Source: Selenomonadaceae bacterium (GTDB taxonomy: Bacteria; Bacillota; Negativicutes; Selenomonadales; Selenomonadaceae). From it: 31,046 nucleotides of DNA. The stretch covers positions 1-31,046 of the forward strand of contig JAFXOC010000586.1 in the NCBI GenBank assembly GCA_017529085.1. The letters run 5' to 3'. Within the stretch, counting starts at the first letter, position 1. Each line of letters begins with the position of its first letter. Shown one piece after another: positions 2,036-29,456 of the stretch. The notes beneath the pieces were generated by a model. That model was not told the DNA's origin, ran no database searches, and was given only the letters and a program-made list of their open reading frames with translations. The position numbers and the translations under genes are program-made.

Positions 2036-2125
2036 ACAAACGCACCCGGGAGTCCAGAGGGCAATGCCCTTTGGCGGGGTCAAGGGGCAGCGCCCCTTGT
2101 AGGGTTTGGGGCGAAGCCCCAACAA
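2036..2125 (+). repeat. Repeat family A, copy 1 (three tandem GC-rich hairpins)
   Basis: acaaacgcacccgggagtccagagggc-aat-gccctttggcggggtcaaggggc-agc-gccccttgtagggtttggggc-gaa-gccccaacaa; homologous to 7275-7364 and 26634-26711. Confidence 0.92.
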
Positions 2126-2140
2126 GAGAAAGGAAATAAC

Positions 2141-3331
2141 ATGAACAATAGCGGAAGGTTTGGAGAGTTTGGCGGGCGGTACATACCGGAGACGCTGATG
2201 AATGCGGTTATAGAGTTAGAGGGAGCCTACTTCAAGTATAGGGAGGACGAGGGTTTTAGGAAAGAATTTGCGGAGCTTTTGGAGGATTACGGAGGCAGAC
2301 CGTCGAGACTTTATTTTGCAAGAAGGATGACCGAGGATTTGGGCGGCGCGAAAGTTTATTTGAAGCGGGAGGATTTGAACCATACCGGGGCGCATAAGAT
2401 AAACAACGTGCTTGGTCAGGCGTTACTTGCTAAGAAGATGGGGAAGACAAGACTTATTGCGGAGACCGGCGCGGGACAACACGGGGTTGCGACTGCGACG
2501 GCGGCGGCTCTGTTTGGTATGGAATGTGTTATTTATATGGGGGAGGAAGATACGAAGCGGCAGGCGTTGAATGTTTATCGAATGAAACTCTTGGGAGCAG
2601 AGGTTCACGCTGTTTCTGCGGGAACGGGAACGCTTAAGGACGCGGTGTCGGAAACTTTTCGGGAGTGGACGAGACGTATAGTCGATACGCATTATTGCTT
2701 GGGTTCTTGCATGGGACCTCATCCTTTTCCCACTATGGTGAGGGATTTTCAGTCGGTTATATCTAAGGAAATCAAGGAACAGATGTTGTTGAAGGAAGGC
2801 AGATTGCCGAACGCCGTTATAGCTTGCGTAGGCGGCGGATCTAACGCTATCGGCAGCTTTTATAATTTTATCGAGGATAAAGAAGTTGAATTAATCGGCT
2901 GCGAGGCGGCGGGTCGGGGGATTGATACTTTTGAGACGGCGGCGACGCTGAACGTGGGGAAGGTCGGAATTTTCCACGGCATGAAGTCTTATTTCTGCCA
3001 AGATAAATTCGGGCAGATAGCGCCCGTGTATTCGATTTCGGCGGGGTTGGATTATCCCGGGGTAGGCCCCGAACACGCGGATTTATTCAAAACGGGACGG
3101 GCTAAATATGTGGCGATTACGGACGAAGAAGCGGTGGAGGCTTTTGAATATCTGCCGAAGGTTGAAGGGATTATCCCCGCTATCGAATCGGCGCACGCAG
3201 TCGCTTACGCCATGAAAATCGCGCCTAACATGAGCAAAGATAAAATTATCGTTATAACAATATCGGGACGCGGCGACAAGGACTGCGCCGCTATAGCAAG
3301 GTTCAGGGAAGGAGTGGATATAGATGAATAG
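2141..3331 (+). CDS. trpB: Tryptophan synthase beta chain
   Basis: [26 protein letters not shown] (PLP lysine), [22 protein letters not shown]. Confidence 0.98.
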
Positions 3332-4979
3332 AATCGAAAAAGCCTTCGAGCAGGCGGGAAAAGCATTCATACCCTTTATAACCTGCGGGGACCCGAATTT
3401 AGAGACTACGGAGAAAATCATAAAAGCGGCGGCGGAGAACGGCGCGGACGTGATTGAACTGGGGATTCCGTTTTCAGACCCGACGGCTGAAGGAATCGTT
3501 ATACAGTCGGCGAATATCAGAGCGTTAAAGAGCGGGGTTACAACGGATAAAATCTTCGACCTGGTAAAAAGGGTAAGGCAGGAAGTGAAAATTCCGCTGG
3601 TGTTTATGACTTACGCCAACGTGATTTTCGCTTACGGACAAGATAAATTTTTCTCCGTTTGCCAAGAAGTCGGGATCGACGGGTTGATTTTGCCCGATTT
3701 GCCGTATGAGGAACGGGGCGAATTTGCCGATACGGCGAAAAAATACGGTGTCAGCCTTATATCAATGATAGCGCCCACGTCGGAAAAGAGGATCGCGGAA
3801 ATCGCAAGCGAGGCGGAAGGCTTTTTGTATATAGTGTCCAGTTTGGGCGTTACGGGAGTCAGAAGCGAGATAAAGACGGATTTAAACGCCGTCATGGATA
3901 TTGTAAGGGGATACGCAAAAATTCCCTGCGCCATAGGTTTTGGCATCAGCGACGCGGAGCAGGCGCGAAAAATGGCGGCGATAGCGGACGGGGTCATTGT
4001 GGGTTCGGCGATTGTGAAGCTTATCGAAAAGCACGGCGAGGATGCGCCGAAATTTGTAGGGGAATACGTTAAAAGCATGAAAGCCGCCGCTATGGAATCC
4101 ATAGGCGCGGGCGAAAAACGCATGGGGATATTAGGCCCGGCGGGTACGCACAGCGAGGCGGCGGCGGAATATTTTTGCAAGGTTACGAATGAAAATCCGA
4201 TTTTTACGAGATACGACGAAATTCACGAGGCTTTAGCCGCCGTTAAGGACGGGCGTATGGATTTGGCGTTCGTTCCCGTCGAAAATTCGCTTGAAGGCTC
4301 TATCAACATAACCCTTGACATTCTCGCCGCAAGCGACGATTTGAAAGTAACAAGGGAGCTTATATGGCCTGTTCGCAACTTCCTCATGGCAAAATGCGAC
4401 ATAAAAGACGTTAAATACATCTATTCCCATCCGCAGCCTATTTCACAATGTTTCGGCTACCTAAGCGAACATTTCCCATACGCCGAAATCGTAAAAGTCG
4501 CGAGCACGGCAAAGGCGGCGCAGATAGCGGCAAACGGCAAGGATAAGGGGATAGCCGCTATTTGCACGTTAAACGGCGGCAAACTTAATTCGCTTAATAT
4601 GTTGGCGGAAAATATCGAGGACAATCCCAACAACTGCACGAGATTTTTCGAGATAAAGCGAGCCGAGAACGCCGAAATTTTATCGGACGTTTCCAAAACT
4701 CTAATCATTTGTCAAATAGACGGACGTAAACCGGGGAGTCTTTGCGATGTGCTTACCGAGTTTAAAAACCGCAACGTAAACATGACCAGAATCGAATCGC
4801 GTCCAGCAAGAACGGAGCTTGGCGCGTATATCTTCTTTTTTGAGCTTGAAACCGCTTCCGACGATGATAATTTAAAATCTGCGCTTGAAGCTGTTAGAGA
4901 GAAAACCATTTGGCTGCGGAATTTGGGGGCGTTTCCGGTGATTGACGCTACTTTGGCAAAAAAAGCAAAAAACTGTTGA
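3324..4979 (+). CDS. trpA-pheA: Tryptophan synthase alpha chain fused to prephenate dehydratase (PDT + ACT)
   Basis: Residues ~1-255 are TrpA ([32 protein letters not shown]). Residues ~267-551 are PDT/ACT ([49 protein letters not shown]). No stop codon between them. Confidence 0.9.
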
Positions 4980-5005
4980 CAACGACTTTTTTAATATGCT
5001 ATACT
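4976..5005 (+). promoter_or_regulatory. Sigma-70/SigA promoter for tRNA-Ser
   Basis: TTGACA (4976-4981, overlapping the trpA-pheA stop), 18-nt spacer, TGc-TATACT extended -10 (5000-5005), 11 nt upstream of the tRNA. Confidence 0.8.
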
Positions 5006-5016
5006 GTCTTAGTCAC

Positions 5017-5106
5017 GGAGAGTTGTCCGAGTGGTTGAAGGAGCACGACTGGAAATCGTGTGTGCGCTATCACGTACCGAGAGTTCGAATCTCTCACTCT
5101 CCGCCA
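5017..5106 (+). tRNA. tRNA-Ser (anticodon GGA)
   Basis: GGAGAGT/ACTCTCC acceptor stem with encoded GCCA end, anticodon arm cacga-CTGGAAA-tcgtg, long variable arm, GTTCGAATC T-loop. Confidence 0.96.
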
Positions 5107-5121
5107 TTTTAGATATTGATT

Positions 5122-5151
5122 AACCGCAGAGTTTTTGCTCTGCGGTTTTTT
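5122..5151 (+). terminator. Intrinsic terminator after tRNA-Ser
   Basis: aaccgcagag / ctctgcggtt 10-bp stem followed by a T run. Confidence 0.85.
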
Positions 5152-5262: not shown

Positions 5263-6912
5263 TCACTTATTCACCTTGTATAGTCTTGCATACACTTCGC
5301 CGGCTTCGTAAATCCAACCTTTTTCATCTACTTCCTCATGCAAAAGCACCAAATTTTCATCGTACGGCGCAAGGTAAAAGAGCACCCCGTCTCCTTTTTC
5401 CACCAACAGATGTGTGAAATTATACTTTTTTATAAATTCCTTATAATCTATCGCGCCCGAGGTCAGATCATAGTATTCGCCTATTATGTTAAAAGCTAAT
5501 CCGCTGTTTTTCGGCGCAAATATCTCGGGTCTGCCGTCTATATAGCATTTTAAGCCGCGAAACTCGGGGTACGAACCGGAATTAAACCCCGTGAACAATC
5601 GAATATCCTCTATATCGTTGTTTTCAAGCAATATATCGACCGTATCTTTATATTTGGCGTTCGTATAATCCGTCGCGCTATACATTGACTGGAACGCCAG
5701 GTGAATAAAGATGAGAGACGGCAGCACAACCGCCAGAAATCCCTTTGTTCTCCTTAGATTATCATTTGACTTGTAAAAAGCCAAAAAGAAAATCAGCGAT
5801 ATAAAAACCCCCGCAAGGTAAAGTATATATACTACGGGCATAGGGGTCAGCGTCTCCATCGCAAAAAGTCGGTAGAAGATGTAAATATACAGCAAGATAA
5901 ACGGCAGAATTTTATAAAATCCCAGTTCCGTTTGAAAGAGTTTGAAACGATAATCTTTGAATGCGAATGGGAAGATAAGAGTTCCCATCATGTAAAACCA
6001 AAACATATTTCTTATCGAAAGAAGTCCCAGCAAGCCTATGCCCAAAAAGAGGAGGGTAAGGTAGAGCGGGATTTTTTTCTTTGCCAGCATAAAAAAGCCG
6101 AAAAATAGCGTTATGAAGAAAAATCTGAAATTTTTCTCGAAAGCGGGCGGTTTTATCTCGCTAATCCACGCGTGAACGCCGGGATCATACGAGGTAAACA
6201 GAAAGAACATCGCCTTTATTCCGTACGGGTTTATAAGAGCTATGACAAAAGAAGCGATTATCGCATAAACAAGCGGTTTAACGTCGAACTTTTCGCATAT
6301 GTATTCTTTGTCAATCTCAGTATACTTGTCCGCCAAAAAAGTTGCTATAAAGGGCAAAGTCAAAATGAAAATAAGAGGCCACACAGCGCAGTGTAGGTTT
6401 ACCGTTAAAAGCGAAGATATAGGAAGCGCAAAGAGATATTTTTTATCGTTGGTTTTGGCGTATTTGATAAGAAAAAAAACTTCCGTCAAGAACACGAGCG
6501 TGGATAAAATCTGAGGGCGAGTCAACAGGAACGAAGGTATGACGAAAACCCCAACGGCAAGGGTAAGCGCCTTTGAAACGGCAACATTGTTTTCAGTTAA
6601 AAGCGAGCAGGTTTTTTCGTAAACAAAAAGGGTACAAAAACCGATCAAAAATACAAACGTCATAAAAACTTCCGCGCCGAAATTATCGTAAAGCGCCCAA
6701 TAAATCACGTCCGTCAGCCATTGTTCAAGGACAAAGTTAATATTTTCGTGAAGGGTAAAAGGTTCGGTATAAGGAAAACCGTTCTCAAAGACAAAACGCC
6801 CGCTGTTTAATATAAACCAAAGATCGTTATCAAAAATCCAACGCATAAAAAGAAGCCCTGAAAAGGGCAGTAAAAAGAATAAAATTTTAGCACCGATGTT
6901 TCCTATATTCAA
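5263..6912 (-). CDS. Multi-pass membrane protein, probable GT-C-fold glycosyltransferase-like
   Basis: About 12 hydrophobic segments, early-loop DLWFILNSGRF motif, TRPQ and WISEIKP loops, soluble C-terminal domain with YIDGRPE. Confidence 0.6.
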   Translation of the reverse strand: MNIGNIGAKILFFLLPFSGLLFMRWIFDNDLWFILNSGRFVFENGFPYTEPFTLHENINFVLEQWLTDVIYWALYDNFGAEVFMTFVFLIGFCTLFVYEKTCSLLTENNVAVSKALTLAVGVFVIPSFLLTRPQILSTLVFLTEVFFLIKYAKTNDKKYLFALPISSLLTVNLHCAVWPLIFILTLPFIATFLADKYTEIDKEYICEKFDVKPLVYAIIASFVIALINPYGIKAMFFLFTSYDPGVHAWISEIKPPAFEKNFRFFFITLFFGFFMLAKKKIPLYLTLLFLGIGLLGLLSIRNMFWFYMMGTLIFPFAFKDYRFKLFQTELGFYKILPFILLYIYIFYRLFAMETLTPMPVVYILYLAGVFISLIFFLAFYKSNDNLRRTKGFLAVVLPSLIFIHLAFQSMYSATDYTNAKYKDTVDILLENNDIEDIRLFTGFNSGSYPEFRGLKCYIDGRPEIFAPKNSGLAFNIIGEYYDLTSGAIDYKEFIKKYNFTHLLVEKGDGVLFYLAPYDENLVLLHEEVDEKGWIYEAGEVYARLYKVNK

Positions 6913-6935
6913 GTTTTGTCACCTCTGTAAGCGTT

Positions 6936-8156
6936 TCAACCTTCTCCTATCTTCTCCGCCAATCTTTCAAAATCCTTCACAAAATTTACAATACTTCTTT
7001 GATAAGTCCTCCCCGAAAAAGCTATATGCGGCAACGGTATAAAAGGCGTACTCCCCGCTATCGCCTGATACATAGGATCCGCCACAATCAAATCCGCCGA
7101 TTGAAATTTTTCCTTAAGCTCCTTTTCACCCTCGAAAACCTCGTCCCCTTCCCTCATCAACACCTTCTCCGTCGAAGTCGCCGCGACAACGGTAATCTTA
7201 TCCCCAATCTCCTCCTCAATCGCCGCCGCCAACGACGCTGCCACTATACTTTCATGTATCAGATAAATTCGTTTTTGTTGGGCTCCGCCCAAACCCGCCA
7301 AAGGGCGCTGCCCTCTGGACTCCCGCCAAAGGGCTTTGCCCTCTGGACTCCCGGGTGCGTTTGTTTGAGTTTCGGTGTATAAGATTGAAGTTTGGTTATG
7401 TTTTATAATTTTTAGTAGTTTTTCTTTTAAACGTCCCACGGGAAGTCCTACGATATAAGGCGTTCCCCACGCTTTTTCCATAGCTTTTGCGGCGGCTAAC
7501 CCTCCGTAACTTACTACCACGTTCATTTTCGCTTTACTTGCCTTAAAAAGTTCGTCTAAGTCGCTTCCCATTGCGAATTTTGCCACCACCGGAACGTCGT
7601 TTTCTTCAAAAAATTCCACAATCGCCTTATCCGTTCCGTTTATGGCAAAATCTAAAGGAGTCAGTCCCAAAATATTTACGCCGTCCGGTTTTTCTTCAAC
7701 TTTTGGAATTTTTTCTGTTATCATATCCGCCAATTTTTTTAGAGCAAGTGAAATTCCAATCGAATAATCCCGCATTGAATTTGTGGGAAGCGAAAAAGTA
7801 GGAATTTTCGTGTTCTTTTCGATAACTCTGGCAATTCCCCTTAAATCTATTCCAAGCATGGCGGGCATCTGCGCCGACAACAACGCGACAAAACGCGGCT
7901 TTTGCAAAAGAGCCGTTTCTGTCACCTCGTCTATAAATTTTCTGTCATTTCCCAAGATAGCGTCCTGTTCGGTAAGTCCCGAAATATATAAAAGAGTTTT
8001 AGAATCAAACCATCGAGGCTCGTCGTGCGTCGTATAAGTAGAATTGCACCCCGAAGGGTCGTGCACCACTATCATCCCGCCAAGCTCAAAAAGCGCGCTA
8101 ATCGCCCCGAACACATCCGCCGAATATGTGGATATTATCGAATTTACCTGCTTCAT
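6936..8156 (-). CDS. Nitrogenase component 1-like oxidoreductase subunit (NifK/BchB-like position)
   Basis: LFELGGMIVVHDPSGCNSTY, GVNILGLTP, A..NVVVSYGG.AAA..M...WGTPY and ADLIVADP motifs; a single Cys; carries an in-frame repeat-A insert. Confidence 0.78.
   Translation of the reverse strand: MKQVNSIISTYSADVFGAISALFELGGMIVVHDPSGCNSTYTTHDEPRWFDSKTLLYISGLTEQDAILGNDRKFIDEVTETALLQKPRFVALLSAQMPAMLGIDLRGIARVIEKNTKIPTFSLPTNSMRDYSIGISLALKKLADMITEKIPKVEEKPDGVNILGLTPLDFAINGTDKAIVEFFEENDVPVVAKFAMGSDLDELFKASKAKMNVVVSYGGLAAAKAMEKAWGTPYIVGLPVGRLKEKLLKIIKHNQTSILYTETQTNAPGSPEGKALWRESRGQRPLAGLGGAQQKRIYLIHESIVAASLAAAIEEEIGDKITVVAATSTEKVLMREGDEVFEGEKELKEKFQSADLIVADPMYQAIAGSTPFIPLPHIAFSGRTYQRSIVNFVKDFERLAEKIGEG
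7275..7364 (-). repeat. Repeat family A, copy 2, intragenic and in frame (90 bp)
   Basis: Minus strand acaaacgcacccgggagtccagagggc-aaa-gccctttggcgggagtccagagggc-agc-gccctttggcgggtttgggc-gga-gcccaacaa; the first module is duplicated. Confidence 0.92.
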
Positions 8157-8385
8157 ATATGTCTCCGTTAATGTATAGTAATACCTGTTATATCTTATTT
8201 CTGCTTATAACGCTAAATTTCCTTTAAGCTTTTGAAGTTTTTACGTTACTATTCATAGGTCAAATCTTTCATCGCCTATAACAACGATTTTTTGATAATG
8301 TCTTAGATAAAACTTTACTAAAAAATACGTGTGCTGTATAATGGGAAAAAAACACAATACGAAAAATAGAAGGGATGACACAAAA

Positions 8386-8580
8386 ATGAAGAAAATTAGT
8401 TATACCGAACAAATTGATATTATTATTGATATGTTAAAAGAGGACATTCATAGATTAGATACGTTGCCTGATTTAGAAGCAAAAATCGAAGCGCATAAAG
8501 GATTAATGAATATTGGAGTTATGGATGAACATGGTAATTTGACTGCTCCATACGTTGCGTTGAGGAATCAATATGTATAG
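8386..8580 (+). CDS. Small acidic 64-aa protein, possible antitoxin/partner
   Basis: ATG at 8386 after agaaggga; overlaps the next gene by 8 bp; AT-rich. Confidence 0.6.
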   Translation: MKKISYTEQIDIIIDMLKEDIHRLDTLPDLEAKIEAHKGLMNIGVMDEHGNLTAPYVALRNQYV

Positions 8581-9181
8581 TAAAAAGACCAATCTTGTCT
8601 TTGGTTTTCACGGTTGCGATAAAGACATAAGAGATATAGTTATAAATGGCGGCGAATTAAAACCAAGCCTTAACTCGTATGATTGGCTTGGGAATGGTAT
8701 TTATTTTTGGGAGGCAGATCCGCAAAGGGCTCTTGAGTGGGCCAAGCAAGCCGCATTGAGAAAGTCCAGTTCAGTAAAGACACCGGCAGTTTTAGGAGCA
8801 ATTATAGATTTAGGGAATTGTCTTGATCTTATGAATCGACAATCGATTCCTATGTTGCAGTACGGCTATGAATGGTTAAAAATAAGTTACAAAAAGCAAT
8901 ATAAATCTCTACCTCAAAATAAAAATGTAAAAAATAATGCAGATATGCTTTATCGTGATTTGGATTGCGCTGTTATTCAAAAAATACATGAGTTGGCTAC
9001 TAAAAATCCAAATATGATGCCGTTTGATTCAGTTCGCGGATTATTTATTGAAGGCAAAGAACCTTATGCAGGTTCGGGTTTTAGAGAAAAAACTCATATT
9101 CAGTTATGTATAGTGAATCCTAATTGTATTAAAGGATATTTTCTTCCAAGGAAATTGAATAGCGAATATCAAATTCCGTAA
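8573..9181 (+). CDS. Putative ADP-ribosyltransferase-fold protein (DUF3990-like)
   Basis: FHGC, DWLGNGIYFWE, RALEWA and terminal HIQLCI match an H-Y-x ART strand arrangement; AT-rich. Confidence 0.5.
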   Translation: MYSKKTNLVFGFHGCDKDIRDIVINGGELKPSLNSYDWLGNGIYFWEADPQRALEWAKQAALRKSSSVKTPAVLGAIIDLGNCLDLMNRQSIPMLQYGYEWLKISYKKQYKSLPQNKNVKNNADMLYRDLDCAVIQKIHELATKNPNMMPFDSVRGLFIEGKEPYAGSGFREKTHIQLCIVNPNCIKGYFLPRKLNSEYQIP

Positions 9182-9210: not shown

Positions 9211-9437
9211 AAAAGACCCTCCTCTAAGAGAAGGGTCACAGAGTGTAGACTTATTATTATTTATTCACGGAACTCTCCCCCCCCTACCCCCCCCTCTAGG
9301 AGGGGGCTTGGTTAGAGACAATTCAATATTTTGGCTCAAAAGCAGTAATCCGAGTGCCTCCCTCCTGGATGGAGGTGCCCGAAGGGTGGAAGGAGAGCCA
9401 TGAAGAGCACAATATTTATTGATTTGTCTACACTCTG
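9211..9437 (+). mobile_element. Repeat family B composite, MITE-like with 12-bp terminal inverted repeats
   Basis: cagagtgtagac (9239-9250) and gtctacactctg (9426-9437) are perfect inverted repeats enclosing cccctctaggagggg and gcctccc...ggaaggagagcc palindromes; an extra hairpin lies at 9211-9237. Confidence 0.7.
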
Positions 9438-9470
9438 AACCTTGAGGAATTAACCTCAAGGTTGTTCTTT
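9438..9470. terminator. Hairpin between convergent genes, possible terminator
   Basis: aaccttgagg / cctcaaggtt perfect 10-bp stem; T-rich tail on the + strand only. Confidence 0.5.
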
Positions 9471-12271: not shown

Positions 12272-12495
12272 TATTCACGGACTCTCCCCCCTACCCCCCT
12301 CTAGGAGGGGGGCTTGGTCAGATGAAATATAAAATTTTGGCTCAAAAGTAATAATCAGAGTGCCTCCCTCTTAGAGGGAGGGGGACCGCGAAGCGGTGGA
12401 AGGAGAGCCGTGAAGAGCACAATATTGGTTTATTTGTCTACAGTCTGATCCCTCCTCTTAGAGGAGGGACAGACGCAAAGCGGCAGGGAGGAGTT
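12272..12495 (+). repeat. Repeat family B composite, copy upstream of the RTX-like gene
   Basis: Colinear with 9264-9437 (attcacgg-actctcccccc...tttgtctacagtctg) but lacks the left TIR; followed by a further ccctcctcttagaggaggg...gggaggagtt unit. Confidence 0.85.
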
Positions 12496-25211: not shown

Positions 25212-25374
25212 AAAGACGATGGAGAAAGCTGCGTGGCTTCCTAAAAATACGATGCGGTTCCAAGCGGCAGCGCATTGGTTCATGAAAAAAATAAAAAAAT
25301 AAAGGATTTAGTCCGTTATGTCAAGAATGTATATGGAAAGAAAAGTTTCGAGCCAACCATTGACGGAGGTTCTT

Positions 25375-26391
25375 ATGAAGAAATACGCAGCAATACGCGC
25401 GCTCTCCGTTTATCTGCCCGAAAGGGTAGAGACAAACGAGAGTTGGGACGCGCGATTTGTAGAAAAACTTGGAATATACGAGAGACATTTGGCAAAAGAC
25501 GATGAGACTTCAAGCGATTTTTGCGTCAGAGTTGCGGAAAAACTCTTTGCCGAATACAATATTGACCGCAAAGATATTGATTATCTCGTGGTCTGCGCCC
25601 AACATCCCGACTACCCGATGCCGCCCACTTCCTGCATTGTGCAGGATAAATTGGGACTTTCCATGAATACGGCGGCAATAGACGTAACCATGGGGTGTTC
25701 CGGCTATCTATACGGGCTTTCGGTGGTTAAAGGTTTGATTGAAGCTCAAATTGCCACAAACGTTCTCTTTGTAACAGCCACAGTCGGCACAAAATTCAGG
25801 AACGAAAAAGACAACATCATGCGTCCCCTCTTTGGCGACGGCGCAACCGCTACTTTAATCACCCCACAAGAATCAAACGAGCCTCTTTTACACTCCTTCG
25901 TCTTCGGCACAGACGGCTCTCGTTATGATAAACTATACATTCCTGCCGGCGGCAGTAAACATATGCGCAAAAATACGCCCGAAACAATAGAGACCGACTC
26001 GGACGGAAATATTCGCACAAATTACGAATGGCACATGGACGGCGCCGCTATCTCATACTTTACGCTTAGAGTCGTTCCCGCTATAGTGGAAGATGTTCTA
26101 AAAAAATCCGATCTGAAAAGAGAAGACATCGACTACTACATATTTCATCAAGCCAACCGTTTTATGATGGAGCACGTACAAAAAAAATGCCACCTTGAAA
26201 AGATGGCATTTTACAACGATATTACCAAAATCGGCAACACGGTATCAAGCTCAGTACCTTTCGGCATGGACATAGTTTTAAAGGAAACTCCCTCCGAAAG
26301 CCTAAAACGCGTCATGCTCGCAGGATTTGGCGTAGGTCTTTCATGGGCGGGCTGCATAGCGGATTTAACGCGGATGATGAAGAAAGTTTAA
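25375..26391 (+). CDS. 3-oxoacyl-ACP synthase III-like (FabH-like) condensing enzyme
   Basis: Cys (TMGCSGY), His (FHQAN) and Asn (GNTVSSS) triad, LFGDGA, GFGVGLSW. ATG 25375 follows GGAGG. Confidence 0.9.
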   Translation: MKKYAAIRALSVYLPERVETNESWDARFVEKLGIYERHLAKDDETSSDFCVRVAEKLFAEYNIDRKDIDYLVVCAQHPDYPMPPTSCIVQDKLGLSMNTAAIDVTMGCSGYLYGLSVVKGLIEAQIATNVLFVTATVGTKFRNEKDNIMRPLFGDGATATLITPQESNEPLLHSFVFGTDGSRYDKLYIPAGGSKHMRKNTPETIETDSDGNIRTNYEWHMDGAAISYFTLRVVPAIVEDVLKKSDLKREDIDYYIFHQANRFMMEHVQKKCHLEKMAFYNDITKIGNTVSSSVPFGMDIVLKETPSESLKRVMLAGFGVGLSWAGCIADLTRMMKKV

Positions 26392-26624
26392 ACGTCTCCT
26401 TCAACGCCTCTGCGCTTCAACAAATCCCGTATAGATTCGATACTCGTGAAATTCTGCGGCGTTAAATCCGTTCCCGCAAACTCTACGTTGTATTCCTCCT
26501 CAAGCCTTGCAAACAAATCCTGCATATCCATCGAATCTATAAGCCCGTCGCTTACAAAATCCTCGCTCTTTTCATAGTCGTTCTTAGGATTAAGCTCCTT
26601 TAATATCTCTATTATCTTCTTCAT
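26388..26624 (-). CDS. Acyl carrier protein
   Basis: 78 aa, acidic, GLIDSMD phosphopantetheine site and NF.SI..I tail. Start at 26624; the longer ORF start is repeat-derived. Confidence 0.85.
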   Translation of the reverse strand: MKKIIEILKELNPKNDYEKSEDFVSDGLIDSMDMQDLFARLEEEYNVEFAGTDLTPQNFTSIESIRDLLKRRGVEGDV

Positions 26625-26633
26625 ACTCTCTCC

Positions 26634-26711
26634 TGTTGGGGCTTTGCCCCAAACCCCGCAAGGGCGCCGCCCTTGACCCGCCAAAGGGCGTTCGCCCTCT
26701 GGACTCCCGGG
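26634..26711 (-). repeat. Repeat family A, copy 3
   Basis: Minus strand cccgggagtccagagggc-gaa-cgccctttggcgggtcaagggc-ggc-gcccttgcggggtttggggc-aaa-gccccaaca. Confidence 0.92.
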
Positions 26712-26748: not shown

Positions 26749-27987
26749 TTATTCTTCCGCTTTTTTTAAAGCATTATTTATCTTTTCCGCCATGCCTTTT
26801 ATCTTAGCAATCGGCACGGAGCAAACAGCAACCCTCACGCCTAATTTTAAAGGTACTGCGTAGATTAAATCTTCGTGCAAAATATCGCAGACCTTTCCGG
26901 GATCGTTCGCCGGCACCGACAAGAAAAATCCGCCCGTATACGGAAGCGCGACGAGTCCCGTTTCTTTTGCCTCTTTCATAAAGAGATCGCCTCTCGCCTG
27001 AATGAGCGTATGCGCTTCTTCCCTATCCTTTTCAAATGAAGCGTAAATTTCTTTATCGCTCTGTATACGAAGCAGAAGTTCCATCGCGCCGCGATTTATA
27101 TTGCTCCATGCGGCGCGGCTTGAATACTTCATTATATCGTTAAATTCATCAATAACGCTTTTGCTCGAACTTGCCGCGATTAACGCCCCTGTGCGTTGAC
27201 CGTAGAACGTATAGCCTTTAGACATACTGAAAGAAAAGAGCGCCAATATATTTTCGGGCAAGTCGCCGAATTTTTTCATAAACTTACGCACTTCGTTCTT
27301 TTCGCCCGCATAATCAATATAGGCTATATCCACGAGTATAGCGACTTTTTTCCCGTTTTTAGCGTAAGCTTTAAACAGGTCTGTAATCTTGTCCCAATCG
27401 GCTTCAGTCAACTGAAAACCCGTCGGATTATGCGCAGGAGTATTTAAAATCACCAAGAGTGATTCTTGGCTTTTATATATCTCTTCAACCTTATCCTTGA
27501 ACGAAGCGAAGTTAAAATTTCTGCTCTCGTCAAACAGTGTGAAATTCTCTAATTTTGCCCCGTGTTCATTGCAAATTACGTTATATGTGCCCCAATACCA
27601 ATCGGAAGTAAGGACTTTTTCGCCTATCTCGGAATAATTCATTATAGCGTGATGAATGGCGCCCGTACCGCCCGCCGTTGCAACAGCGGAAGTATAGGCG
27701 TTCGGTTTTTGCTCGAGAAACGTCAGATTTTGAACCGCGTTAAGATATTCGGGAATCCCCGAAATCGGCGCGTACGCCGCAATTTTTTCAATGGGCATCT
27801 CTTTATAAACCTTCTCCATCGTGGGAAGCGTTATAAGTTTCTCGTTATCGTCTAACATAACGCCGATAGTGGCGTTAGTCACCTTATCCGCGCCGTATTT
27901 TTCGGCAGCTTCTCTGCAAGCCGCCGCCGCCCCAAATATAACGTCGTTTAACTTCTTCCCCGCCGAATGCGTCGCCGCCATACTCAT
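26749..27987 (-). CDS. PLP-dependent class I/II aminotransferase
   Basis: NATIG, TAGGTGA, ILNTPAHNPTG, VDIAY and SMSKGYTFYGQRTG (PLP lysine). Start at 27987 after GAGG. Confidence 0.9.
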   Translation of the reverse strand: MSMAATHSAGKKLNDVIFGAAAACREAAEKYGADKVTNATIGVMLDDNEKLITLPTMEKVYKEMPIEKIAAYAPISGIPEYLNAVQNLTFLEQKPNAYTSAVATAGGTGAIHHAIMNYSEIGEKVLTSDWYWGTYNVICNEHGAKLENFTLFDESRNFNFASFKDKVEEIYKSQESLLVILNTPAHNPTGFQLTEADWDKITDLFKAYAKNGKKVAILVDIAYIDYAGEKNEVRKFMKKFGDLPENILALFSFSMSKGYTFYGQRTGALIAASSSKSVIDEFNDIMKYSSRAAWSNINRGAMELLLRIQSDKEIYASFEKDREEAHTLIQARGDLFMKEAKETGLVALPYTGGFFLSVPANDPGKVCDILHEDLIYAVPLKLGVRVAVCSVPIAKIKGMAEKINNALKKAEE

Positions 27988-28024
27988 CTCTAGCACCTCA
28001 TATATCTTTTTAAATTTGATTCTT

Positions 28025-28074
28025 TACTTTCTTTTCTCTTTCTTTTTTGTAAAAAAGAAAGAGAAAAGAAAGTA
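28025..28074. repeat. Repeat family D: perfect 24-bp polypyrimidine/polypurine inverted repeat
   Basis: tactttcttttctctttctttttt-gt-aaaaaagaaagagaaaagaaagta, followed by a further purine tract to ~28101. Confidence 0.85.
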
Positions 28075-28103
28075 ACAAAGAAAAGAGAAAGAAAAGAAAG
28101 AAT

Positions 28104-29342
28104 TTAATTCTTAGGGAAAAATTCATCGTGAACGGCGTTGACGGCTTCTTTGACGTGACCGCCTTTGATTAAGCAAGAGAGGCTTATTTCGGATGTGCTG
28201 ATAATTTCGATGTTTACGCCGGCTTTGGCGAGTGCGCCGAACATTCTGGCGGCGATGCCGGGGTTGCCGAGCATACCTGCGCCCACTATGGAAATTTTCG
28301 TGACGTTTTCTTCTATTAAGACGTTGGAAGCGTTAAGATCTCGGGCGACTGTTTCCATGACCTCTTTGGCTTTGGTTAAATCGTCGTTTGCAACCGTGAA
28401 TACCATGTCGGTGATGTTTTTCTCGATATTTCGCATACTTTGAACGATCATGTCAACATCAACGTTAGCTTTTGCGAGCGCGTCGAAGATCTTGTGAGCT
28501 ACGCCCGGCGTGTCCGATATGCCTAATACGGCGATTTTGGTGACGTTTTCATCGTGAGCGACGCCTCTTATGACAAAACTTTTTTCTTCGATAGATTCCA
28601 TTGAATAATCCCCCCGAATAATAGTTCCCGAAGTTTTAGTGAATGTAGAGCGCACATGAATGGGGATTTTAAAAATCTCGCCCATCTCAACGGAACGGGG
28701 CTGCATAACCCCCGCGCCAAGACGCGCCATCTCAAGCATTTCGCTGTATGTTATCTCTTTGATTTTTCTGGCGGACGGCACTATTCTGGGGTCTGCCGAA
28801 TACACGCCCTCAACGTCCGTGTATATTTCGCAAGAATCCGCCCCTAAAGCGCCGGCGAGCGCAACCGCGGAAGTATCCGAGCCGCCGCGGCCCAACGTTA
28901 CCGGATCGCCTAAATGGTTGGAACCTTGAAATCCCGCGACAACCACAATGTTGCCTTTGTTTAATTCTTCGTGCACGCGTTCGGGAGAAATATCTACAAT
29001 ACGCCCCTTTGTATACGCCGAATCGGTTTGCAGACCCACCATAGGACCCGTAAGGGATACTGCGGGATGTCCCAAAGTTTGAAACGCCATGGATAAAAGG
29101 GCTATAGAAATTTGTTCGCCTGTTGTGAGAAGCATATCCATTTCACGGGGAAATTTATATGGTTCGCCGTTTATGCCTTTAGCAAGGCTTATGAGTTCGT
29201 CTGTGGTATCTCCCATAGCGGATACCACCATAACTATTTTGTCGTTGCCTTTCTTTTCGTCTAAAATTCTTTTAGCCACGGACATTATTTTTTCCGTGGT
29301 CGCAACAGAACTTCCGCCAAATTTTTTTACGATAAGAGCCAT
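28104..29342 (-). CDS. lysC: Aspartate kinase
   Basis: IVKKFGGSSV, VVSAMGDTTD, TLGRGGSDTSA, YTDVEGVYSADP and two ACT domains. Start at ATG 29342. Confidence 0.96.
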   Translation of the reverse strand: MALIVKKFGGSSVATTEKIMSVAKRILDEKKGNDKIVMVVSAMGDTTDELISLAKGINGEPYKFPREMDMLLTTGEQISIALLSMAFQTLGHPAVSLTGPMVGLQTDSAYTKGRIVDISPERVHEELNKGNIVVVAGFQGSNHLGDPVTLGRGGSDTSAVALAGALGADSCEIYTDVEGVYSADPRIVPSARKIKEITYSEMLEMARLGAGVMQPRSVEMGEIFKIPIHVRSTFTKTSGTIIRGDYSMESIEEKSFVIRGVAHDENVTKIAVLGISDTPGVAHKIFDALAKANVDVDMIVQSMRNIEKNITDMVFTVANDDLTKAKEVMETVARDLNASNVLIEENVTKISIVGAGMLGNPGIAARMFGALAKAGVNIEIISTSEISLSCLIKGGHVKEAVNAVHDEFFPKN

Positions 29343-29456
29343 GCGCATCCTTCCTCGCTGTAAAAAATTCAAAACTATTTGAGATTATAACCTAATTTTA
29401 ACGCTTAGTCTATATAAATTATAATGAATACAAACGGAGCCTTTAAGGAAATTACG

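Follow-up and report, generated by a model that had tools for sequence, protein, structure and literature searches.

What makes a gene change its synonymous codon preference abruptly, within one reading frame and on one strand? The question is raised by a nitrogenase component-1-like gene (6936-8156, minus strand, 406 aa) in a 31,046-nt stretch of DNA (the window; GenBank assembly GCA_017529085.1, contig JAFXOC010000586.1) from an uncultured rumen Selenomonadaceae lineage. A preliminary description, made from the sequence alone, placed the change at a palindromic repeat inside this gene (here called repeat A) and ascribed it to nicking or strand displacement at hairpins, with damage to the exposed single strand. 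Comparison with the source genome and two congeners revealed that the change is one instance of a compositional footprint that is tied to the presence and orientation of short hairpin repeats, genus-wide and at more than 250 sites. Its most likely origin, in which we place about even confidence, is a strand-asymmetric substitution bias acting at the DNA level, anchored at the hairpin and running outward from it.

The window is the longest contig of a metagenome bin (G000; 2.79 Mb, 670 contigs, GC 0.43), and gut metagenomes of ruminants and other animals, from at least five studies, contain the same DNA. Two congeneric bins, G001 and G002, were used for comparison; G000, G001, and G002 are 91, 85, and 89% complete, respectively. 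G001 is close kin of the source genome (median protein identity 95%, with most elements common to both) and thus not independent of it; its use as an independent replicate was rejected, and loci with an element in G001 alone were treated as uninformative. G002 is far more diverged (67-77% nucleotide identity to G000). Genes were called by a greedy longest-open-reading-frame procedure, and the antisense gene set was verified against Pfam. Composition was expressed as third-position skew, (G+T-A-C)/N, and "outward strand" denotes the strand running 5' to 3' away from the hairpin.

Codon Usage Within the Nitrogenase-Like Gene

The codon flip in the focal gene is real and not a product of chance. 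Upstream of the repeat, codons 139-263 (7368-7742, minus strand) form a block dominated by A-ending codons, with a skew of -0.18; downstream of it, codons 291-406 (6939-7286, minus strand) end predominantly in G, and also in T, with a skew of +0.48 to +0.56 and only 5 C-ending codons among 116. The hand counts that first drew attention to the gene proved exact: AAA:AAG is 14:2 in the upstream block and 2:6 in the downstream block for Lys, and GAA:GAG is 10:0 and 6:8 for Glu (Fisher p = 0.005 and 0.006, respectively). As a null distribution, adjacent 116-codon blocks were compared in every gene of the genome (standard deviation 0.149, 99.9th percentile 0.41). None of the 5,745 comparisons was as large as the focal jump of 0.66, from -0.18 to +0.48, and block values of at least 0.48 were reached by 19 of 12,012 blocks genome-wide. 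Codons 1-138 (7743-8156) are again G/T-rich, at +0.26 to +0.29 (+0.03 in G001 and +0.05 in G002); the A-rich stretch is therefore a block of approximately 125 codons beside the repeat and not the whole upstream part of the gene.

The identity of the gene follows from its open reading frame, translation, orthologue alignment, and a match to Pfam family PF00148 (Oxidored_nitro; 2e-28) that covers residues 16-337 and runs across the repeat. The closest named relative of the protein, from a rumen Selenomonadaceae bin, shares 65% identity. It was thus the focal protein that indicated rumen Selenomonadaceae; TrpB, with about 80% identity across Clostridia, carried no taxonomic information. In the orthologue alignment, the repeat occupies codons 264-290 (7287-7367), in frame, within a poorly conserved interdomain linker. 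Module search and DNA folding place module m1b (TTGGGCTCCGCCCAAACCCG), a small GC hairpin, at 7278-7297 on the plus strand, and the strong skew begins at this end of the element. Adjoining it are two tandem copies of module m3 (CCAAAGGGCnnnGCCCTCTGGACTCCCG; 7298-7353, plus strand), recognized by a core search and by a period of 28 with 93% match; as DNA, this tandem is predicted to fold at -22 to -23 kcal/mol (z about -3). Next comes a G/T-rich tail (7354-7420, plus strand), which in the sense of the gene is the A/C-rich run quoted in the preliminary description; among aligned repeat-A copies, the composition of the tail is common but its sequence is not.

In total, the insert adds 27-35 residues, leaves the reading frame open, and is spanned by the Pfam domain. 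The G001 orthologue carries a decayed insert at the same place, of which only LW and a few further residues are recognizable, and the G002 orthologue has no insert but a short Asn/Lys linker there. Rickettsia palindromic elements are of the same type, in that an in-frame insertion adds a peptide without breaking the protein.

Repeat A in the Window and the Genome

Repeat A is modular, with the order m1-(m2)-(m3), and each module consists of a GC hairpin followed by a C-rich spacer. There are 144 loci in the source genome, divided into 73 with m3 and 71 without; m3 core matches number 60 in G000 and 66 in G001, and G002 has almost none. The module consensus sequences start with TTGGGGC, CAAGGGGC, GGCAGGGC, and CCAAAGGGC, and the predicted hairpins have fold z scores of -2.7 to -3.8. 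Most copies (72%) immediately precede a ribosome-binding site and start codon, in outward orientation, with the m1 end set against the reverse complement of these signals; they are therefore located in 5' leaders. Approximately 29 copies sit just past a stop codon instead.

The window contains three copies, and the polarity described for them, A/C-rich on one side and G/T-rich on the other, is present at all three. Copy 1 (2047-2122, minus strand; m1-m2a-m3; fold -25.7 kcal/mol, z -3.8) is directly upstream of the ribosome-binding site of trpB (2141-3331, plus strand), whose skew falls away from the copy, with values per 60 codons of +0.27, +0.40, +0.53, +0.20, +0.30, +0.10, and -0.2. Copy 2, the intragenic one, lies 5 kb away in the opposite orientation; here the approaching and leaving halves both fall within one reading frame, and its flank skew is the third strongest among 110 measurable repeat-A copies. 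Copy 3 (26636-26709, plus strand; m1-m2-like-m3) is upstream of a small acyl-carrier-protein gene on the minus strand (26388-26627; PP-binding match). A FabH-like gene that runs toward this copy (25318-26391, plus strand) is A/C-rich on its own strand over its 3' two-thirds, with block values of -0.27, -0.30, -0.27, and -0.23.

Genome-wide, repeat-A copies were oriented as in the preliminary description, and the third positions of sense and antisense genes were kept apart. Averaged over all oriented copies, the skew is strong and depends on orientation in each gene class separately, as had been predicted. On the m1 side, sense genes show values of +0.29, +0.27, +0.22, +0.22, +0.18, and +0.16, declining to +0.09 by 900 nt, and antisense genes, read on the oriented strand, show +0.28, +0.27, +0.14, +0.18, +0.13, and +0.10. 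Third positions at the element boundary are alike in both classes (G 0.40-0.42, C 0.10-0.13). On the other side of the copies, the skew in the bin from -100 to 0 is -0.20; codons 139-263 of the focal gene represent this weaker mirror side of the gradient, which also emerges in the meta-profiles. The skew thus peaks at the edge of the element and declines over 0.3-1 kb, and the outward strand is G/T-rich on both sides, bearing out the likeness to a miniature replication origin that had been drawn from the three copies.

Among 118 measurable flanks in the source genome, the mean outward-strand skew is +0.223, with 93% above zero, and 62% of flanks reach at least 0.2, compared with 7% of random positions. 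Loci without m3 (71) are skewed like those bearing it (73). In genes lying over 2 kb from the nearest copy, the first 100 nt reach only +0.09. Of the antisense genes tested, 14 of 17 have Pfam domains (FBPase, HypD, a PBP, SecA, PurH, and RNase PH among them); read on their own strand, antisense genes have skews of -0.27 to -0.11 over the last 600 nt, versus approximately 0 in 2,137 control genes. Seen from the transcript, every gene is A/C-rich where it approaches a hairpin and G/U-rich where it leaves one. In 14 tandem, co-oriented contexts, the outward strand has a skew of +0.22, although nothing annotated is transcribed outward.

Where neighboring elements share a contig, 21 of 33 cases combine opposite orientations, with skew in both classes (+0.22 and +0.26). 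A skew of equal strength in either orientation on the same contig does not depend on replication direction; on this ground, Okazaki-fragment and fork-stalling models that rely on that direction were rejected, and fork direction was dismissed as the cause.

A Second Hairpin Family and a Control Family

Inspection of the sequences adjoining extreme-skew blocks that repeat A left unexplained led to a second, unrelated hairpin family, termed family C. Its members consist of an anchor (TTAAAGTTTTTT), a pyrimidine arm of approximately 28 nt, a short loop, and a matching purine arm, and 141 copies are present in the source genome, often as head-to-head pairs or approximately 50 nt past the m3 end of repeat A. 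Past the purine arm, skews of +0.29, +0.23, and +0.22 were obtained for sense genes and of +0.16, +0.30, and +0.25 for antisense genes, with -0.07 to -0.17 on the other side. A variant of this palindrome occurs in the window at 28015-28084 (inverted repeat, no strand assigned; fold -24.5 kcal/mol, z -6.2), where the approaching gene (28104-29372, minus strand) ends at -0.63 and the leaving gene (26749-27996, minus strand) starts at +0.23 and +0.30.

Both profiles are reproduced in G001, with +0.27 and -0.20 for family C. In the 584 kb fetched from G002, 94 family C copies give +0.12 and -0.115 over a range of approximately 300 nt, and all 11 copies of a diverged relative of repeat A are positive, with a mean of +0.16 over 300 nt. 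One G002 locus (L148) carries a pyrimidine/purine palindrome, distinct from repeat A, directly upstream of trpB, and no gradient is seen in that gene; single family C copies in G002 can thus lack the effect.

Family B served as a negative control. It resembles miniature inverted-repeat transposable elements (MITEs), being approximately 200 nt long with inverted ends about 145 nt apart, and is abundant in G001 as well as in the source genome; two copies lie in the window (9239-9441 and 12279-12467). The flanks of its 68 copies in G000 are flat, without skew. The rule that describes the two hairpin families is that, on either side of a short-loop hairpin repeat, the outward strand is G-rich and slightly T-rich. 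Longer palindrome arms were also sought, and cognate flanks were found to be no more complementary than non-cognate ones.

Several extreme-skew blocks lie less than 300 nt from contig ends of the source genome (for example, C108, C314, C388, C508, and C627). This is consistent with unassembled repeat copies there, so that the element counts given here are lower bounds.

Dependence on an Intact Element

Orthologues allow the same genes to be compared with and without a hairpin. For the downstream block of the focal gene, the skew is +0.56 in the source genome, where the element is intact, -0.18 in G001, where the insert is decayed, and -0.25 in G002, which has no insert; GAA:GAG in this block is 15:0 in G001 and 11:1 in G002. 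The trpB gradient occurs in G000 and G001, both of which have copy 1, and is approximately zero in G002, which has no repeat A there. The comparison was extended to 20 orthologue pairs with an element in G000 and no GC hairpin within 250 nt in G002. On the outward strand, the skew is +0.25 in G000 and +0.07 in G002 (Wilcoxon p = 0.0009), and the GC skew is +0.195 and +0.048 (p = 0.0014).

Since orthologues lacking an intact element also lack the skew, in the focal gene, in trpB, and across the 20 pairs, the skew is derived and goes with the intact element, in line with the hairpin dependence originally proposed. This disposes of the idea that the repeat merely marks recombination joints between donor DNAs; indeed, the skew declines gradually with distance at more than 250 sites, which lie in conserved housekeeping genes.

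Substitution Spectrum and Divergence

The original proposal rested on a C-to-T plus A-to-G signature of exposed single-stranded DNA, of which C-to-T is normally the dominant lesion. The observed spectrum is different: A-to-G, C-to-G, and T-to-G changes all feed a gain of G, and C-to-T is marginal. At two-fold purine sites, outward-strand G/(A+G) is 0.53 in leaving and 0.62 in approaching genes, up from 0.31 and 0.40, respectively, while T/(C+T) at two-fold pyrimidine sites barely shifts (0.60 to 0.64 in sense genes, 0.69 to 0.76 in antisense genes). Four-fold G increases from 0.26 to 0.39-0.41 at the cost of C and A, and G+C content at third positions (GC3) near elements increases from 0.45 to about 0.55. 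All amino acids take part, with a shift toward G-ending codons where genes leave an element and toward C-ending codons where they approach one.

Differences between near flanks of the source genome and G002 have the same character. The counts are 273:126 for A-to-G against G-to-A, 144:74 for C-to-G against G-to-C, 143:101 for T-to-G against G-to-T, and 162:142 for C-to-T against T-to-C. A net gain of G and loss of C also extends to codon positions 1 and 2, and distal parts of the same genes show little change.

The footprint is not a zone of raised divergence. Synonymous differences between G000 and G001 amount to 0.20-0.23 within 400 nt of elements and 0.24-0.25 elsewhere; for A/G sites the values are 0.197 +/- 0.012 near and 0.21 far, and for C/T sites 0.160 and 0.18-0.215. 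The lack of any increase argues against the recurrent-damage hot zone that had been envisaged.

Two general explanations were set aside. GC-biased gene conversion raises GC symmetrically and creates no G-versus-C skew, so it was rejected, by reasoning, as a sole cause. Translational codon selection was rejected because the sign is opposite in approaching and leaving genes, the effect decays within genes, and all amino acids behave alike.

Possible Origins of the Footprint

A substitution bias at the DNA level is favored because the effect is equal in size in both gene orientations, spills over to nonsynonymous positions, has a kilobase range, and depends on a short-loop palindrome. Under such a bias, the outward strand would gain G, and slightly T, and lose C and A on each side of the hairpin, with the ratio of A-to-G to G-to-A changes on that strand shifted by an estimated 2.5-fold. 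The likeliest cause would be a DNA transaction that begins where the hairpin is extruded and proceeds outward to either side, for which short tracts of repair or priming synthesis, strand-directed mismatch repair, and outward transcription with R-loops are candidates. A more specific version, which we advance only tentatively, assigns to short-loop hairpin or cruciform repeats the role of fixed entry points from which a strand-specific DNA transaction extends outward, a few hundred bases to either side. If priming, misdirected mismatch repair, or nick-directed repair synthesis began at such points, the silent sites and some amino acids of the genes located there would be rewritten in the course of evolution.

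Several points weigh against a DNA-level origin. The molecular transaction itself is something that we infer from its products. The pattern is symmetric under reverse complementation, and gene orientation therefore cannot separate an RNA-level rule or selection from a DNA cause. Additional mutational input sufficient for a 2.5-fold A-to-G shift predicts approximately 40% more A/G divergence, which is not seen; a fixation bias or a balanced change of rates thus fits better than extra synthesis errors. Within 8157-8330, upstream of the G/T-rich N-terminal third of the focal gene, a hairpin element was sought and none was detected. Of 85 extreme blocks genome-wide, 65 do not adjoin a detected repeat-A copy, many of them adjoining family C or contig ends. 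Finally, the three genomes are metagenome bins from one genus and are not independent.

Transcription offers a possible, if somewhat unlikely, alternative to a DNA transaction at the hairpin. Hairpins would mark or carry outward-firing transcription starts, perhaps with R-loops seeded by outward RNA rich in G clusters, and the non-template (outward) strand would gain G and T by damage while the template strand is preferentially repaired; because damage would rise on one strand and repair on the other, total divergence could remain unchanged. That 72% of repeat-A copies immediately precede a ribosome-binding site and start codon suits this idea, and there is a parallel at the 5' ends of vertebrate genes, where A-to-G exceeds T-to-C and the non-template strand has an excess of G+T, part of it within the first 1-2 kb (Green et al. 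2003; Polak & Arndt; PMC2927911). The vertebrate asymmetry is alike in the G+T excess by way of A-to-G, the confinement to about a kilobase, and the local rise in GC, but its sign follows the gene's own transcription, whereas in this bacterium it is set by the hairpin. Genes approaching a hairpin are A/C-rich, the reverse of what their own transcription predicts, including the 14 tandem cases (+0.22 on the outward strand), so that the model needs strong antisense transcription from approximately 75 gene ends. Moreover, no sigma-70-like promoter lies beside the window copies, promoter-like counts do not exceed those of shuffled sequences, no conserved -35 box is found upstream of the family C anchor, and ordinary gene starts reach only +0.09. 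Selection on transcripts, which we consider unlikely, would make the hairpins transcription-unit boundaries or RNA stabilizers, preceded by C-rich, G-poor, unstructured RNA suited to Rho loading and termination and followed by G-rich, C-poor RNA that resists Rho and does not compete with the stem. In its favor, one RNA-level rule covers all four gene configurations as well as the intragenic copy, weak selection with a scaled coefficient near 1 agrees with the slightly lower synonymous divergence close to elements, and the element read from m1 to m3 ends, like a terminator, in a small stem and a T-rich tail. Yet the range of up to 1 kb, with hundreds of silent sites per element, goes far past a Rho loading site of approximately 80 nt; the effect is equal in leaving and approaching genes, although their RNAs and supposed functions differ; codon positions 1 and 2, and hence proteins, are dragged along; and the effect is also found within a translated gene, in which ribosomes would be expected to hide signals of this kind.

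Explanations that invoke nicked or broken DNA fare worse. That a nuclease of the HUH type, such as the REP-associated tyrosine transposases (RAYT) that serve repetitive extragenic palindromic (REP) sequences, nicks the hairpin or displaces a strand, leaving single-stranded DNA to C-to-T and A-to-G deamination, was the original suggestion and now seems improbable. The origin-like, hairpin-dependent polarity accords with it, as does the outward-strand A-to-G change expected of a displaced strand. A precedent is the strand-specific, position-graded A>G excess of the heavy strand of vertebrate mitochondrial DNA (PMC9561281). In mitochondria this excess is accompanied by strong C-to-T and belongs to a known mode of strand-displacement replication. 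Here C-to-T is weak, with T/(C+T) at 0.64 versus 0.60, C-to-G and T-to-G add to the gain of G while GC3 rises, and synonymous divergence shows no excess. A search for the Y1/HUH (RAYT) domain PF01797 at E <= 0.001 found none in the three bins, with positive controls in 6 of 14 genomes; given that the bins are 91, 85, and 89% complete, this does not prove absence. The REP palindromes of RAYT systems typically carry a GTAG or CGTC tetranucleotide at one end (PMC3733652), and such heads are missing from the aligned repeat-A copies. The footprint is probably neither a damage-driven hypermutation zone nor the work of a RAYT nuclease. Breakage of fragile palindromes, in which the hairpin or cruciform is cut, the ends are resected 5' to 3', and the flanks are damaged or resynthesized, is very improbable. 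It would account for an effect that is two-sided, kilobase-scale, and limited to short-loop palindromes, the MITE-like family with its distant inverted ends being flat, and fill-in of the resected strand runs outward and matches the strand that gains G. Deamination of 3' tails, however, should by its polarity make the inward strand G/T-rich, the opposite of what is observed, no increase in rate accompanies the elements, and repair templated by an identical sister chromosome would be invisible except where synthesis is error-prone. Least credible, to the point of being barely worth entertaining, is an artefact, whether a contig misjoined at the repeat or a gene recombined from compositionally different donors. 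Logan contigs from four runs were compared over 6000-9000 (X2-X4 look like one data set); every public unitig-type contig is interrupted at the tandem m3 units, with none spanning 7297-7325, and the focal gene is more diverged from G001 (70% nucleotide identity) than its neighbors are (74-87%). Both halves of the gene are nevertheless collinear and in frame with one orthologous protein, depth in an independent sample is equal on either side (25.5 and 24.6), and the gradient decays smoothly without a step. Since it is seen in three genomes assembled independently of one another, and at more than 250 sites, a possible misjoin in the focal contig is irrelevant to the pattern.

Relation to Known Systems and Implications

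The GC and keto skew of bacterial replication origins has the same polarity as the footprint, with the outward strand G/T-rich on both sides. However, an origin provides one switch per replicon, is set by the fork, and extends over a replichore, whereas here more than 250 switches occur in 2.8 Mb, each decaying within about 1 kb. The amplitude is also far above the genome background, opposite elements a few kilobases apart are both skewed, and the change is mainly one of G against C and A rather than C-to-T. Footprints of single-stranded DNA damage, such as deamination clusters and hypermutation zones, are led by C-to-T and have a raised rate, neither of which is found here.

As repeats, the elements resemble clusters of REP sequences, bacterial interspersed mosaic elements (BIME), and REPIN (PMC2817692; PMC3116915). 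The likeness lies in short GC-rich hairpins, more than 100 mostly extragenic copies, composite clusters, restriction to one genus, and placement at gene ends. The elements nonetheless lack two of the three defining features: neither the GTAG/CGTC head nor a Y1/RAYT gene was found. Moreover, unlike REPs, repeat-A modules are arranged head to tail in a fixed order. The literature search found no report of flanking compositional gradients for REPs. The hairpin-anchored footprint itself appears to be undescribed, as a full-text literature search returned no description of repeat-anchored compositional gradients or local skew in bacteria.

The usual explanations for local codon usage in bacteria are expression level, replication strand, and horizontal transfer. 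Closeness to a hairpin and orientation relative to it constitute a fourth factor, which outweighs the other three within approximately 1 kb, raises third-position G from 0.23 to 0.40, and shifts amino-acid composition as well. This factor explains extreme intragenic codon switches such as the focal one; it also interferes with codon-adaptation indices, with the use of composition to detect gene transfer, and with the prediction of origins from skew. If its basis is mutation or repair, the repeats mark an unmapped strand-specific DNA transaction, of which the skew reads out the polarity and tract length; if it is selective, there is a long-range sequence requirement around RNA or DNA hairpins. 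Should hairpins indeed be entry points for such a transaction, dispersed palindromes would be an unrecognized general determinant of local codon usage in bacteria. Intact, decayed, and absent copies in three congeners, together with the many rumen metagenomes that contain the species, are natural experiments that make the question testable.

Other Features of the Window

Beyond positions 8157-8330 lies an AT-rich two-gene cassette. A tRNA gene at 5017-5103 (Rfam, 56.7 bits) was the only match in an Rfam search, which returned none for the repeats. It is preceded by the best sigma-70-like promoter match of the scanned stretch (4976-5005, 11/12) and followed by a clean intrinsic terminator (5122-5147). 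The strain in an independent sample (run X5) departs from the window sequence at approximately 30 positions within 150 nt (6193-6343), in part of a membrane-protein gene downstream of the focal gene, and is nearly identical to it on either side, which suggests a small recombination patch.

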